DNA from: Candidatus Aenigmatarchaeota archaeon
Lineage (GTDB): Archaea > Aenigmatarchaeota > Aenigmatarchaeia > GW2011-AR5
NCBI GenBank assembly: GCA_016198685.1
Contig: JACQID010000008.1
Span: 74,148-138,147 of the forward strand
Direction: 5' to 3'
DNA: 64,000 nucleotides
Under the pieces are notes generated by a model that was not told where the DNA came from, did no database searches, and worked only from the letters and a program-made list of their open reading frames with translations. This document shows positions 967 through 53,821 of this stretch, one piece after another; the stretch's first letter is position 1; each line of letters opens with the position of its first letter. The position numbers were made by a program, and so were the translations under genes.

Positions 967-1212
967 TTTTTTGCGGTCCGTGCTTTTTCTGCTTTTGCCC
1001 ATCATCTTCTTGCGGACGGCAAAATAATATACGAGTGCGCCTATAGGGCCGCCTATGAATATTATGATTATCCAAAGCAGCTTATCCTTGAAGTCGCGCT
1101 GTATGCAGTCAATGAGCATCCATACGGTAAATGCAAGAGAGGCGAAACCGAGAATCATAGCTAACAGAAAAAACACGCCGAATAATAATGCTAAACCTTC
1201 AAGAAGGCTCAT
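955..1212 (-). CDS. Small membrane protein with PLDc_N-like (phospholipase D-nuclease N-terminal) helices
   Basis: MSLLEGLALL...WMLIDCIQRDFKDKLLWIIIIFIGGPIGALVYYF matches the PLDc_N pattern. ATG at 1212 is preferred to the longer track start. Confidence 0.7.
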   Translation of the reverse strand: MSLLEGLALLFGVFFLLAMILGFASLAFTVWMLIDCIQRDFKDKLLWIIIIFIGGPIGALVYYFAVRKKMMGKSRKSTDRKKSSR

Positions 1213-1272
1213 TCTCTTACATGGTAATATTCTATATATAAAGATAATACATCGAGGTTGCATTCTCATAGA

Positions 1273-1484
1273 ATGCAATCAAAATGTCCGCTGTACAGCA
1301 GTACGAAATTCAGCGTAGGGAACACGGATGTTATCGGAAAGCCCGACTGGTTTTCATACTATCCTTCTGAGGAAAGTCTATATTGAGAAAATCCACAGAC
1401 ATCAAAGTGTTTGCCTGCATGAAATGCGGGAACATGATCTTCACGGCCGATATAGATCAGCTAAAGCAGATAGTAAAGAAATGA
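1273..1484 (+). pseudogene. Frameshifted Zn-ribbon protein
   Basis: MQSKCPLYSSTKF...YYPSE stops at 1384-1386. The -1 frame continues GKSILRKSTDIKVFACMKCGNMIF...KK* to 1484. The first CxxC reads CPLY. Confidence 0.55.
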
Positions 1485-1544
1485 TTAATATTTCCCGCAA
1501 ACCGACTATCGTAATAATACGTTATTTATGGTGCCCGTTCCAGT

Positions 1545-1655
1545 TTAATATCCAGCCATGACCCTCGCTTCCTCAAGGACGATACCACATTTCATGCAGT
1601 ATGCTTCAAAACTGCTGTAAATCACTTTTCCGGACTTGCAGTTGGAACATTTCAT
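1545..1655 (-). CDS. 36-aa TFIIB-type Zn-ribbon microprotein (below the ORF-track cutoff)
   Basis: Manual translation MKCSNCKSGKVIYSSFEAYCMKCGIVLEEARVMAGY*, with two CxxC pairs and CG(I/L)VLEE as in TFIIB ribbons. Confidence 0.6.
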   Translation of the reverse strand: MKCSNCKSGKVIYSSFEAYCMKCGIVLEEARVMAGY

Positions 1656-1911
1656 AATTTAATTATCGTTTTTATGCAATAAACATTTTTCCGTGCTCTG
1701 ACCAATAGATTTCAATAAATATGATAGGTTATCTCAATTGCCATGGGTTCTCATGAGTATGGCCTATGTCGGCATTCAATAAGCTTTATAAGAATTTCGA
1801 TAGTAATCAGTCATAGGCTCTTACTTCTGCCGGCGAAAGCCGGTTAGGTTAGAACACAAAATAAAACATAGAGTTAGAATATAAAACAAAAGCATAGAAT
1901 AGGTGAAATAA

Positions 1912-3735
1912 ATGAAAGAAAAGAATGCGCACAGCGCGCAGAACGTACAGAAGATTGTACCCGATACCAGCGTGATAATATCCGGCATACTGTCGGATCT
2001 GGTGAAGAAAGGCGAATTGAAAGGGATAGAGATTATAATTCCAGAATTCGTTGTAGAGGAGCTCCGCTCCCAGGCATCCCGCGGCCGCGAGATCGGCTTC
2101 AAGGGTCTGAGGGAACTGAAGGAAATCCGCGCCCTTGAGGAAGAAAAGAAGCTTACTGTCATAAGAACAGGCAGACGCCAGACAATGGAAGAAATCCAGC
2201 TTGCCAAGTACGGCAGGATAGACGGACTCATAGTTGACGTCGCCAAACAGGAAAAAGCGGTTCTTTACACTTCTGATCGTGTCCAGCATCTGGTCGCTGA
2301 AGCCGAAGGTGTAGTTTCGGTATTCTTTGAGCCTTACCAGAAAAAGGAGACGGTTCTTGCAAAGATGCTCACAGACGATACAATGAGCTTGCATCTCAAG
2401 GAAAAATGCGCGCCTATGGCCAAGCGGGGAAGACCTGGCGAAATGAAGCTTGTGAAAATATCAGACGATCTTCTTACAGAAGAGCAAATGGAATCTATAA
2501 TAAAAGAGGTCATGGATGCATGCCGGTACGAGGAGGATTCGTTCCTTGAAGTGGACGGTCATACAGCCAGCGTAGTTCAGATGGGCAATATGCGTATTGC
2601 AATAGCAAGGCCGCCGTATTCTGACGGCATAGAAATCTCGGTTGTAAGGCCAACAGCGAAGCTTACGCTTGACGATTACAAGCTTTCTGAGAAACTGAAG
2701 AAGCGCCTCGAAGGCAAAGCCGAAGGTATACTGCTCTCCGGCCCCCCAGGATCGGGAAAAAGCACTTTCGCCGCGTCATTGGCGGAGTTCTACGAAAGCA
2801 AAAGCAAGATAGTAAAGACCATGGAATCGCCGCGTGATCTTCAGGTGAGACCGGAAATAACGCAGTACACAAAATTGAAAGGAAGCTTTGAGAATACGGC
2901 AGACATGCTTCTGCTTGTTCGTCCGGATTATGTAATCTTTGATGAAGTCCGCAAGACCAACGACTTCCATGTTTTTTCGGACATGCGCCTTGCAGGCATA
3001 GGCATGATAGGCGTTGTGCATGCAACAGATCCGGTAAGCTCGGTTCAGCGTTTCATTGGCAGGGTTGAAATGGGCATGATACCGCATATCGTAGATACGG
3101 TCGTGTATATCAAGGACGGCAAGGTAGGCAAGATATATACCCTCTCACTCATAGTCAGGACGCCTACCGGCATGACGGAAGCCGATTTGGCAAGGCCGAT
3201 AGTGGAAGTACGCGACTTTGAAAGCAATGCCCTTGAATATGAAATATACAGTTACGGTGAAGAGAACGTCATAATACCTGTCAAGGAAGAGGCAACTTCT
3301 GCAGTGCAAGAATTGGCTAAGAAACAAATTCTTGCAGAATTGCGCAAATACGACAGGAACGCAGAAGTCGAATTCCTTTCTGACAACAGCATAACGGCAT
3401 ACGTAGAGAACGATGTGATGGCAAGAATAATCGGCAAAGAAGGCCGCAACATCAAGGAACTTGAAGAAAAACTTGGCTTGAGGATAGACGTTTCTCCAAG
3501 AGTCGCCACTATGGGCAAGGAAGCCAAGTTTGTCTACGACGAATCGGGCGGATACATACTCTTTAACTTTAACGAGCGGCTTCAGGGCCATGTAGCGAAT
3601 TTTCACGTTGACGGCGAGTATCTGTTCTCGGCGACCATAGGGAAAGGAGGAAGCGTCCGGGTTTCGAAAACAAGCGACACGGGCAAGGAACTAATGAAGG
3701 CATTGGTCAAGGGAAGCCTCACTACATTCGTGTAG
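1912..3735 (+). CDS. pina: PIN-domain/ATPase/KH protein (PINA-type branch-migration ATPase)
   Basis: N-terminal PIN (VPDTSVII), Walker A GPPGSGKS, Walker B VIFDEVR, C-terminal KH (IIGKEG). 607 aa. Confidence 0.88.
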   Translation: MKEKNAHSAQNVQKIVPDTSVIISGILSDLVKKGELKGIEIIIPEFVVEELRSQASRGREIGFKGLRELKEIRALEEEKKLTVIRTGRRQTMEEIQLAKYGRIDGLIVDVAKQEKAVLYTSDRVQHLVAEAEGVVSVFFEPYQKKETVLAKMLTDDTMSLHLKEKCAPMAKRGRPGEMKLVKISDDLLTEEQMESIIKEVMDACRYEEDSFLEVDGHTASVVQMGNMRIAIARPPYSDGIEISVVRPTAKLTLDDYKLSEKLKKRLEGKAEGILLSGPPGSGKSTFAASLAEFYESKSKIVKTMESPRDLQVRPEITQYTKLKGSFENTADMLLLVRPDYVIFDEVRKTNDFHVFSDMRLAGIGMIGVVHATDPVSSVQRFIGRVEMGMIPHIVDTVVYIKDGKVGKIYTLSLIVRTPTGMTEADLARPIVEVRDFESNALEYEIYSYGEENVIIPVKEEATSAVQELAKKQILAELRKYDRNAEVEFLSDNSITAYVENDVMARIIGKEGRNIKELEEKLGLRIDVSPRVATMGKEAKFVYDESGGYILFNFNERLQGHVANFHVDGEYLFSATIGKGGSVRVSKTSDTGKELMKALVKGSLTTFV

Positions 3736-9733: not shown

Positions 9734-9846
9734 GCCGGCGTCGCATAACTTGGCATTGCGCCAGCCTTGAGAGCTGGTGAGTCTCTGACTCTTGCAGGTT
9801 CAAATCTGATGCAGTATCTGCTTCAGTGAAAATCCTGCCGCCGGCG
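9734..9846 (+). tRNA. tRNA-Ser(TGA) with a 28-nt T-loop intron at 59/60 (9805-9832)
   Basis: Anticodon arm CCAGC-CTTGAGA-GCTGG. Perfect BHB (TTCA/TGAA, bulges AAT and AAT, inner helix CTGA/TCAG) restores TTCAAAT. Confidence 0.93.
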
Positions 9847-9909: not shown

Positions 9910-10542
9910 ATGGCATTTCAAAGCATAGGAAGCGTTCTGACAGACTTGGCCACAGAAACCATAACCTTTGTGCCGAACCTTGTTGGAGCAATAGTACTGC
10001 TCGTGATAGGTTTGGTTGTAGGTAAGGTTGTAGGCAGAGTCGTTAAGGAAGTCTTAAGCAAGGTAAAGCTGGACTACTATCTGACAGAAACAGAAAGGCC
10101 TGTGATAAGCATATCCAACCTATTCGCTCTCATAACACGATGGTGGATATATGTGGCCTTTATTGTAGCGGCTGTAGACACGCTGCGCATACCCTCACTT
10201 TCCGCGTGGCTTACCCAAATCCTGCACTTCCTGCCCAACGTTGTCGGAGCTACGACAGTGATGGTCGTGGGCTACGTACTTGCTGAGTTCGTCAAGGACC
10301 AGCTGAAGAAGGTTGGAAAGTCCTATTCGTTGTTGATAGGCAAAATAACGTTCTTCTTCATCATGTACGTGGCTATTGCCGTCGCTTTGCCGATACTCCA
10401 GATACCCGCAACACTGATAAGCCAGATACTGCTGATAATAATCGCCTCGATGGGCGCTGGTATTGCAGTTGCGATGGGCCTCGGTCTGAAAGACGCATTG
10501 TCTGACGTGTCCAGAAGATACGTCAAGAAGATGAAGGTATGA
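9910..10542 (+). CDS. Small-conductance mechanosensitive-channel-like TM-helix repeat protein
   Basis: Two repeats of F(V/L)PN(L/V)VGA, 5-6 TM helices and a C-terminal AIAxGLGxK segment. Confidence 0.7.
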   Translation: MAFQSIGSVLTDLATETITFVPNLVGAIVLLVIGLVVGKVVGRVVKEVLSKVKLDYYLTETERPVISISNLFALITRWWIYVAFIVAAVDTLRIPSLSAWLTQILHFLPNVVGATTVMVVGYVLAEFVKDQLKKVGKSYSLLIGKITFFFIMYVAIAVALPILQIPATLISQILLIIIASMGAGIAVAMGLGLKDALSDVSRRYVKKMKV

Positions 10543-10677: not shown

Positions 10678-10777
10678 GCGCTTGTAGTCTAGTGGCAGGA
10701 TACGACCTTGCCAAGGTCGAGTTTCGGATCGATAACGGTTCGGACGGCATACCCGGGTTCAAATCCCGGCAGGCGCA
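10678..10777 (+). tRNA. tRNA-Gly(GCC) with a 29-nt intron at 45/46 (10722-10750)
   Basis: Anticodon arm CGACC-TTGCCAA-GGTCG. BHB core GTCG/CGGC, bulges AGT and ATA, 9-bp inner hairpin. Splicing gives variable loop AGAC. Confidence 0.93.
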
Positions 10778-10778
10778 T

Positions 10779-10993
10779 ACTGGGATTTTCCAAGGACAAG
10801 CTTCGCTTCTCCTGGATGTTGAAGACGCCACTTCAACAGAACCGAAGGTTCATAGGGAAGACGAAGTCTTCACTGCGCCGGAGGAAGAATGTCCTCCTTG
10901 CGAATGCCGGCAGGCGCATCCAAGAAAAAATTCAAATCCCGGTTTGGCATCATGATTTGAACCCTTGAATCATCTGAAGATTTTGATTTTCAG
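10779..10993 (+). ncRNA. Candidate structured ncRNA or cis-element in the tRNA-Gly trailer
   Basis: Closing helix 10779-10788/10934-10943 encloses five hairpins, three of them abutting. Two more abutting hairpins run to 10993. No credible ORF. Strand is assumed from the tRNA. Confidence 0.5.
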
Positions 10994-11103
10994 CATCCGA
11001 AGAAGCAGAGATTCTCCAGCGAAGATCCCGCAGAGGCGCGTATCTAAATTCAAAGCCGATTGTAGTGGGATAGATATTTAAGTGGCTGTTCTAGTAGTAT
11101 TAT

Positions 11104-11610
11104 ATGATATTTCAGAAAAAGAGCGAGATGCAGGAAATAAAAGACGCTCTTTCCCAGGATAATCCTTCTGTTCAAAAATATTATGGGCGCGAAAATTTTG
11201 CTAAAGAGGAGAATCGCCGCGCAGCTGCTCATGAGCCTGTTCGCACAGAAGACGATGCAGTTGCTCCGCCGGTCAAAGGAAGCGCCCCGCTTTTTGTCAA
11301 GATTGATAAATACTATGATATTCTTAAGGATCTTCAGGAAATGAAAATGTTTCTGGCAGGGACAAAGCATCTTTATCATGTTCTTGAGGAAGTCGAAAAC
11401 GTAAGAAACGACACGCTCAAGATAATGCGCGCAACGATACAGCGTCTTGAGAAGAGCGTTGTAGAAATGGATTCGGGGCTTCTTCGGCCAAGAGAAGATC
11501 AGTACCCAACACCTCAGGAAACGCCTGAGGTTCGCCACATAGAAGGCTCATTGAATGAGCTTCAGGGCCAGCTTGATGTTCTCAAAAAAGAATTGCAGTC
11601 CATGAAATAG
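11104..11610 (+). CDS. Hypothetical coiled-coil protein
   Basis: 168-aa ORF with heptad repeats after PLFVKIDKYYDIL. Confidence 0.7.
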   Translation: MIFQKKSEMQEIKDALSQDNPSVQKYYGRENFAKEENRRAAAHEPVRTEDDAVAPPVKGSAPLFVKIDKYYDILKDLQEMKMFLAGTKHLYHVLEEVENVRNDTLKIMRATIQRLEKSVVEMDSGLLRPREDQYPTPQETPEVRHIEGSLNELQGQLDVLKKELQSMK

Positions 11611-53690: not shown

Positions 53691-53821
53691 GCCCTTGTAG
53701 TCTAGCTTGGATAGGACGAGAGCTTGCGGAATGCCCGTGACCCATAATTATGGATTGCAACTCGCGAAGTGAGGGGCATTGCGAATAGCTTTAGACCCGG
53801 GTTCGAATCCCGGCGGGGGCA
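53691..53821 (+). tRNA. tRNA-Arg(GCG) with a 57-nt intron at 37/38 (53730-53786)
   Basis: Acceptor GCCCTTG/CGGGGGC, AGAGC/GCTTT stem, BHB core TTGC/GCGA, intron helix ATGCCC/GGGCAT. Confidence 0.92.

Follow-up and report, generated by a model that had tools for sequence, protein, structure and literature searches.

With a probability somewhat above even, the segment at positions 10778–10918 of the window (the whole 64,000-nt stretch of Candidatus Aenigmatarchaeota DNA analysed here) represents a long-form copy, already ageing, of an insertion element that is small and non-autonomous and that duplicates 16 bases of its target tRNA. Sequence comparison places it in a family with at least 26 members in Aenigmatarchaeota-like DPANN genomes and metagenomes. 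Such an insertion element is supported by tandem arrays, decay, long and short forms, and the occurrence of its two-hairpin core (Hb–Hc) within a MITE of an unrelated kind; on balance, the behaviour of the element seems to be that of a miniature mobile element and not that of a regulator dedicated to tRNA. The source genome (G000) is of DPANN type, 0.93 Mb in size and 94% complete, and is, like every genome compared here, a MAG; G001–G004 denote the other four genomes of its genus.

The host gene in the window encodes tRNA-Gly(GCC). Its anticodon loop reads directly from the sequence as TTGCCAA, its T-arm occupies 10753–10769, and its discriminator base A73 lies at 10777. The gene was found with Rfam and was not called by ARAGORN. 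Two more intron-bearing tRNAs of the window, at 9734–9846 (40.6 bits) and 53691–53821 (45 bits), were likewise detected with Rfam and missed by ARAGORN, which recovers two of the five tRNAs in the window. Upstream of the locus, 9910–10542 encodes a small mechanosensitive-channel-like protein (PF05552), and downstream, 11104–11610 encodes a protein of 168 aa without a Pfam match, the TATA-like box of which, at about 11070–11085, forms the end of the repeat graveyard behind the tRNA gene. The parts of the locus are as follows.

10678–10777, + strand: host gene tRNA-Gly(GCC) with a 30-nt intron at 10721–10750 (Rfam RF00005, 56.6 bits)
10762–10777, + strand: proximal repeat, tRNA nt 58–73 (AATCCCGGCAGGCGCA), the segment that is duplicated at the far end of the element
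10778–10788, + strand: linker TACT followed by GGGATTT (antisense T module, first half; 5' strand of the closing helix P1)
10789–10838, + strand: module A, hairpins H1 (10789–10816) and H2 (10817–10838), splitting the antisense T module
10839–10852, + strand: hairpin Ha, GAACC-GAA-GGTTC(A), near-invariant with 96% of cells paired in 26 copies
10853–10875, + strand: hairpin Hb, TAGGGAAGAC-GAA-GTCTTCACTG, 10 of 10 pairs varying on both sides among copies
10876–10902, + strand: hairpin arm Hc, CGCC-GGAGGA-loop-TCCTCC-TTGCG, 11 of 11 pairs varying on both sides
10903–10918, + strand: terminal repeat, copy of tRNA nt 58–73, 15 of 16 bases matching, with the mismatch a G at 10906
10931–11041, + strand: decayed second unit of the short form, collinear in alignment with the tRNA end plus short element of G003 and G001

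As delimited by alignment with its relatives, 10778–10918 is the conserved unit of the window copy. Its GGGATTT is the reverse complement of tRNA nt 57–63, and in Ha the remaining half of the antisense T module folds on a sense copy of nt 52–57. Module A is limited to long-form copies (the window, L007, L002, L136 and the second unit of L142), the long forms being the window copy, both other full copies of G000, the G001 Gly(UCC) copy and the second unit in G004; it is missing at the orthologous loci in G003. Signs of wear in the window copy are the C-to-G change at 10906 in the repeat and a T at 10898, where relatives have G, which weakens the base of Hc. In the second unit, a T-arm scrap (10931–10942), an antisense T (10954–10964), an Hb-like hairpin (10973–10993), Hc-like remains and a degenerate tRNA-end copy at about 11021–11040 could be recognised. 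To the host, this copy probably amounts to neutral sequence in the 3' flank.

A first-pass annotation made from the sequence had described 10779–10993 as a multibranch structured element in the tRNA trailer, and the structural observations behind it hold. The pairing segments ACTGGGATTT at 10779–10788 and AAATCCCGGT at 10934–10943, the hairpins H2 at 10817–10838, GAACC-GAA-GGTTC at 10839–10851 and GAAGAC-GAA-GTCTTC within 10853–10875, the arm TGCGCC/GGCGCA around GGAGGA/TCCTCC, and both reported copies of the tRNA end (CCGGCAGGCGCAT at 10907–10919, equal to 10766–10778, and TTCAAATCCCGG at 10931–10942, equal to 10758–10769) were all found in place. The helices it listed are reproduced by the minimum free energy fold of 10779–10993, which reaches −77.1 kcal/mol against −57.6 ± 4.6 kcal/mol for dinucleotide shuffles (z = −4.2; 0 of 200 as good). 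Folding energies are similar for both strands and single out neither a strand nor a type of molecule as the active one. The closing helix drawn by the annotation can indeed form but does not belong to the conserved unit, which stops at 10918. Where relatives are intact, the unit is closed by GGGATT pairing with AATCCC from its own terminal copy of the tRNA end; the window has AATGCC in that place, owing to the C-to-G change at 10906, so that the helix as annotated borrows the T-arm scrap of the decayed second unit. TGCGCC:GGCGCA was considered as a helix of the whole family and rejected, since it covaries in one case only (G003 Glu-UUC); outside that case, CGCC...GTGCG is the plain base of Hc in the other families. 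An Rfam search, which the annotation had proposed as a test, returned the tRNA as the sole match and no known family, both at the gathering threshold and at E ≤ 10 (next best 20.8 bits against a threshold of 85).

Copies of the element share one anatomy, with a size of about 70–125 nt. After the discriminator of the host tRNA come a linker of 1–13 nt, often T-rich, the antisense T module GGGATT|TGAACC, a loop of 3–4 nt, GGTTCA, the hairpins Hb and Hc, and the terminal copy, in which AATCCC and 10 nt more repeat host nt 58–73. GGGATT|TGAACC is the reverse complement of tRNA nt 52–63, that is, an antisense image of the T-loop and T-stem, and GGTTCA is a sense copy of nt 52–57. GGGATT pairs with the terminal AATCCC as helix P1, and TGAACC pairs with GGTTCA as helix Ha, so that P1, Ha, Hb and Hc are predicted to meet in a four-way junction free of linkers. 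P1 stacked on Ha would form a 12-bp duplex replica of the T-loop region, interrupted at 57/58 by Hb–Hc; in the long forms the two additional hairpins of module A stand at the matching point of the antisense strand, giving a predicted six-way junction when folded single-stranded.

The hairpin core is the most regular part of this anatomy, with Hb and Hc amounting to exactly two hairpins in 26/26 copies. Outside the genus, Hb is strikingly constant, with 3 bp, one bulged base on the 5' strand, 8–11 bp and a triloop, and Hc is its mirror image with the bulge on the 3' strand. In a model-fitted alignment of the 26 copies, which is biased toward the structure of the model, all 21 pairs of Hb and Hc vary on both sides with 97–100% of cells paired, and covariation scores 0.505, compared with 0.177 in shuffles and 0.05–0.09 with slid partners. 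The first-pass annotation had expected conservation and covariation of an RNA; both are present, and a single-stranded DNA form would explain both equally well. Triloops of GNA type with a C-G closing pair are frequent among the copies. Such triloops are especially stable in DNA, which is at most a hint as to the molecule that folds.

A covariance model (R1) built from seven copies matched all four other genomes of the genus, five genomes in four other genera of the same family, and two other families of the order, and a pattern scan of metagenome contigs added eight more loci. With the sole exception of G020:C4, each tRNA-tail copy immediately follows a tRNA gene and shares its orientation. 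The host tRNAs share the T-arm GGTTCAAATCCC and comprise Gly(GCC), Gly(UCC), Glu(UUC), Glu(CUC), Ala(GGC), His(GUG) and several unnamed ones, with about 15 distinct 3' ends. G000 itself holds three copies and one stump. The second copy, behind tRNA-Gly(UCC) on another contig, is identical to the interior of the window copy at 120 of 125 positions, compared with merely 78 of 118 for the two tRNA genes; a third, diverged copy stands behind tRNA-Glu(UUC) and the stump behind tRNA-Glu(CUC). An element or remnant thus follows four of the ten G000 tRNA genes with the GGTTCAAATCCC T-arm and none of the roughly 19 other Rfam-called tRNAs. The 14-mer GAACCGAAGGTTCA was unspecific across genome contigs, giving mainly chance matches in bacteria, and a strict scan of G000 for two bulged hairpins returned nothing and missed the known copies as well, the rule being too strict for the genus.

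At the exceptional locus G020:C4 (L145, 940–1153) the downstream T-arm copy is perfect (ACGGG...CCCGT), and neither an intact tRNA nor a 5' acceptor strand was recognisable within 1 kb upstream; the locus could be the 3' half of a split tRNA or a decayed array at the contig start. MAG contigs break at or beside tRNA-tail repeats in several places (G001:C1 start, G049:C56 end, G053:C34 end and L201), and the repeats may be one reason why assemblies fragment and why tRNAs are missing from DPANN bins.

The terminal copy derives from the target tRNA. It equals host nt 58–73 in 17 of the 26 elements and differs at 1–5 positions in the remainder, and identity extends just 0–4 nt past the discriminator unless the next element adjoins. 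The decisive comparison is between the element of tRNA-His in G043 and that of tRNA-Ala in G053, in which the interiors are identical at 61 of 66 positions and the host-specific parts of the repeats at 5 of 10. Such like interiors with unlike repeats indicate that the repeat is made from the recipient tRNA on arrival, and they exclude slow co-evolution as well as an att core borne by the element. At one locus, L181 behind tRNA-Glu(UUC) in G003 (contig C12), the terminal copy CCCGTCAGGCGTA resembles the tail of Gly(GCC) more closely than that of the Glu host. This suggests that element copies behind separate tRNAs have undergone gene conversion; the locus counts against the insertion reading in so far as a target-derived copy requires such later conversion there.

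Turnover is evident across the family. Tandem units occur in G004:C89, G001:C1, G041:C2, G043:C37, the metagenome locus L202 and the window (10931–11041), and where the units are unequal, the distal one is the more decayed. At orthologous Glu(UUC) and Gly loci with homologous flanks, long forms are present in G000 and short forms in G003, and the Glu(CUC) locus of G000 retains only a stump. One trait of MITEs, multiple dispersed copies with insertion polymorphism, is seen here in the number of copies, the long and short forms at orthologous loci and the tandem arrays. A clean pair of empty and filled sites was not recovered, the tRNA-Ala locus of G049 (genus g26) lying at a contig end. The interpretation in the first-pass annotation is supported in part: among its three readings, the tRNA-derived mobile remnant comes nearest to the evidence, because of the roughly 15 different tRNA 3' ends, the target-derived duplication, the tandem arrays and the decay. 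A dedicated folding switch gating tRNA-Gly maturation finds no support in an element that is patchy within the genus, decays and is not specific to a single tRNA.

The Hb–Hc core also turned up away from tRNA genes. In G065 (genus g17), a TA-flanked MITE with imperfect terminal inverted repeats TATAGTAGAAGACAT / ATGTCACATGCTATA is present in at least 12 copies, some of 94 nt and others of 146 nt (L148, L163, L191, L192 and L224–L227). The larger form differs from the smaller by a 52-nt insert that has the Hb–Hc architecture, including the CGCC...GTGCG base, and that sits at GCATA|TAGCAG without duplication. By its architecture, the Hb–Hc core is an independent module.

For an insertion element, a mechanism may be outlined. 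The element would insert immediately 3' of tRNA genes with the GGTTCAAATCCC T-arm, and the 16 bases from A58 of the T-loop to the discriminator would be duplicated on arrival. Movement might proceed through a folded single-stranded intermediate, and the target could be found by base pairing of the antisense T module. A target duplication of 16 bp would imply staggered cuts at 57/58 and 73/74, or else copying of the target primed by the AATCCC end. Counting against an insertion element, 16 bp is more than a DNA transposon usually duplicates, and the end of the duplication coincides exactly with that of the mature tRNA, which is also compatible with a definition at the RNA level. A more specific version, which we propose only tentatively and consider rather improbable, is a class of guide-bearing mobile elements in which the antisense T-arm selects the tRNA target by pairing to the T-loop region, either in the tRNA genes or in their transcripts, the folded junction is the substrate of a host enzyme that creates the 16-nt duplication, and the genus excises the element as a circular "trailer intron". 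The host enzyme might then be a lone XerA-like recombinase or the RNA splicing and ligation machinery.

No mobilising protein for the element was identified among the Y1 transposases, TnpB, Cas1 and tyrosine recombinases examined. Y1 transposases occur in 24 of the 70 genomes of the order, and G000 contains neither a Y1 transposase (PF01797) nor TnpB (PF07282); the IS200/IS605 ends of relatives are GC-rich hairpins with TTCA/TGAA loops, unlike the element. An origin as an IS200/IS605 PATE was rejected on the lack of TnpA/TnpB in G000 and the unrelated IS ends. Cas1 (PF01867) is present in 7 of the 70 genomes, uncorrelated with the element, and is missing from the carriers G001–G004, G020, G023–G025, G041, G043, G053 and G062; G000 has one intact cas1 gene (G000:C1:144340–145179) and a broken fragment with in-frame stops (G000:C2:18320–18718). 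A casposon derivative was rejected given that Cas1 is rare and uncorrelated and that the element has no TIRs. G000 encodes one tyrosine recombinase, of 398 aa, with a Phage_integrase domain and a weak zinc-ribbon match. It may represent XerA, or else an integrase belonging to an integrated element; its ORF (1198–2394, minus strand, of locus L183, G000:C6:201856–205353) follows a tRNA gene of the same strand at a distance of about 450 bp.

Alternatively, the element could be a co-transcribed structured trailer RNA that is excised in the genus at a bulge-helix-bulge (BHB) motif by the splicing endonuclease and circularised like a trailer intron, an explanation that we regard as doubtful. Such an RNA might act as a T-arm decoy or as a folding partner of the pre-tRNA, or might simply be removed. 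The BHB would be formed by the tRNA 3' end and the GTGCG-AAT-CCCG segment, CGGG-CGCA of the tRNA pairing with TGCG-[AAT]-CCCG. In a BHB scan, a strict h4-H4-h'4 motif brackets the element exactly at Gly(UCC) of both G000 and G001, with predicted cuts 2 nt past the discriminator on the 5' side and before T60 of the terminal copy on the 3' side; weaker motifs were found at the Gly(GCC) copies of G001 and G003, and a register-shifted h5-H4-h'3 motif at Glu(UUC) of G000. The strong covariation of the hairpins and a genome rich in non-canonical tRNA introns would also suit an RNA, and DPANN endonucleases with an L3 loop have been associated with highly disrupted tRNA genes (PMC5829648). Nevertheless, the BHB is present in only five of about ten copies of the genus, being missing from G002, G004 and all copies outside the genus, and the window copy itself lacks it through two flanking mismatches. 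Half of the motif, moreover, arises automatically from the self-complementary CCCGG/CGGG of the host tRNAs, and several loci have a T-rich run, a possible terminator, between tRNA and element. Patchiness, decay, tandem arrays and host switching fit poorly with a needed RNA, and the lack of a matching Rfam family offers it no help. BHB excision is taken here as a possible lineage-specific use of the element rather than the identity of the family.

Integration by site-specific recombination was weighed against the same data. Integrases that target tRNA genes and cross over in the T-loop are expected to leave an identity block from the T-loop to the tRNA end. The element might accordingly be a fused attL–attR remnant of plasmids or viruses whose tyrosine recombinase crossed over in the T-loop, the 16-nt repeat being the identity block that restores the tRNA; the repeat does span the T-loop to the exact tRNA end, G000 does encode its 398-aa recombinase, and partial tRNA fragments derived from integration are known in archaea (PMC3218864). 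We consider this quite improbable, because an att core is borne by the element, yet near-identical elements bear different host-specific repeats, as between G043 and G053, and because compensatory changes keep the interior paired, which is not expected of decaying arm remnants. Two scans of viral contigs yielded neither the element nor an attP-like arrangement. A longer version with genes between the repeats was not found in G000, where distant copies of the tRNA end proved to belong to other tRNA genes, and a long integrated element was rejected on that ground. It is highly improbable that the downstream copy serves as an alternative 3' exon, either of a giant intron in the T-loop/acceptor region or of a split or permuted tRNA. 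In its favour, a T-loop cut at 57/58 could be rebuilt from GGTTCA (sense) plus the terminal copy, and G020:C4 combines a perfect downstream T-arm with no recognisable tRNA upstream. Against this, the upstream tRNA is complete and contiguous in the window and at nearly all loci (Rfam 54–66 bits), the 5' strand of the downstream T-stem is degenerate in the genus (GAAGG), and the terminal copies decay freely. Neither the scan nor inspection of the sequences found a BHB with splice sites at 57/58 or 59/60, and this, with the intact upstream tRNA, led us to reject the giant intron or alternative exon.

Mobile DNA classically lands at tRNA genes, and no known tRNA genes are more fragmented than those of DPANN archaea. 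The element is a very small repeat defined by its structure; it targets tRNA tails, copies nt 58–73 of each host and brings with it its own target in antisense. Should it be mobile as proposed, it could offer a tractable example of how a choice of target is encoded in some 70 nt, an origin for partial tRNA 3' fragments that mislead the tRNA annotation of MAGs, and a possible link from insertion elements to the origin of non-canonical tRNA introns and BHB sites. For practical purposes, the repeats coincide with contig breaks at tRNA loci and their intron-bearing host tRNAs are missed by ARAGORN.

Among the known systems compared, there is none of which the element does not fail at least one defining feature, and full-text literature searches covering archaeal MITEs at tRNA genes, miniature casposons and DPANN tRNA introns turned up no description of it. 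Like MITEs, it is small, non-coding, structured and multi-copy, has long and short variants and decayed copies, and would be mobilised from elsewhere. It differs from them in having no real terminal inverted repeats: between the left ends (linker plus GGGATTTGAACC) and the right ends (GTGCG or GCAGC), the sole inverted repeat is GGGATT/AATCCC, of which AATCCC lies within the duplicated target. Furthermore, MITEs duplicate 2–10 bp of target, whereas the flanking repeat of the element is 16 bp, target-derived and fixed to tRNA nt 58–73, and the element takes one set place with respect to tRNA genes and includes its target in antisense form. Casposons share the insertion at tRNA 3' ends and the long target duplication, and tandem arrays have been reported for them. 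The casposon of A. boonei inserts at the 3' end of tRNA-Pro, recognises the T-psi-C region and duplicates 15 bp of target, of which 5 bp overlap the tRNA, whereas the 16 bp of the element lie wholly inside its host tRNA at nt 58–73 (PMC5137440 for the casposon). Casposons also have TIRs and encode Cas1 and PolB; the element has no TIRs, and Cas1 is missing from most genomes that carry it.

The att sites of tyrosine recombinases with a T-loop crossover resemble the element in their direct repeats from T-loop to tRNA end and in the serial occupation of one tRNA, but the repeat of the element is derived from the target and not borne by the element, which is gene-free and only 70–125 nt long. IS200/IS605-derived PATEs and REP/BIME sequences resemble it in their imperfect hairpin pairs, extrahelical bases and conserved structure with variable sequence, and the Hb–Hc insert of G065, which lacks a target duplication, adds to the likeness with PATEs; in contrast to these systems, Hb and Hc mirror each other instead of repeating one sequence in the same sense, and G000 has no Y1 transposase. 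Archaeal BHB tRNA introns, including the "transposed" introns of Thermoproteales, are comparable as structured tRNA inserts in an intron-rich lineage, with a BHB around some copies of the genus, although the element lies outside the mature tRNA, its BHB is not family-wide, and it has a duplicated exon end, which introns do not. The integron attC site and the attP of CTX phage, for which integron integrase and cassette context are absent here, offer what may be taken as a pure analogy: as the element is predicted to do, they rely on structure over sequence, display extrahelical bases and recreate the target duplex by folding.
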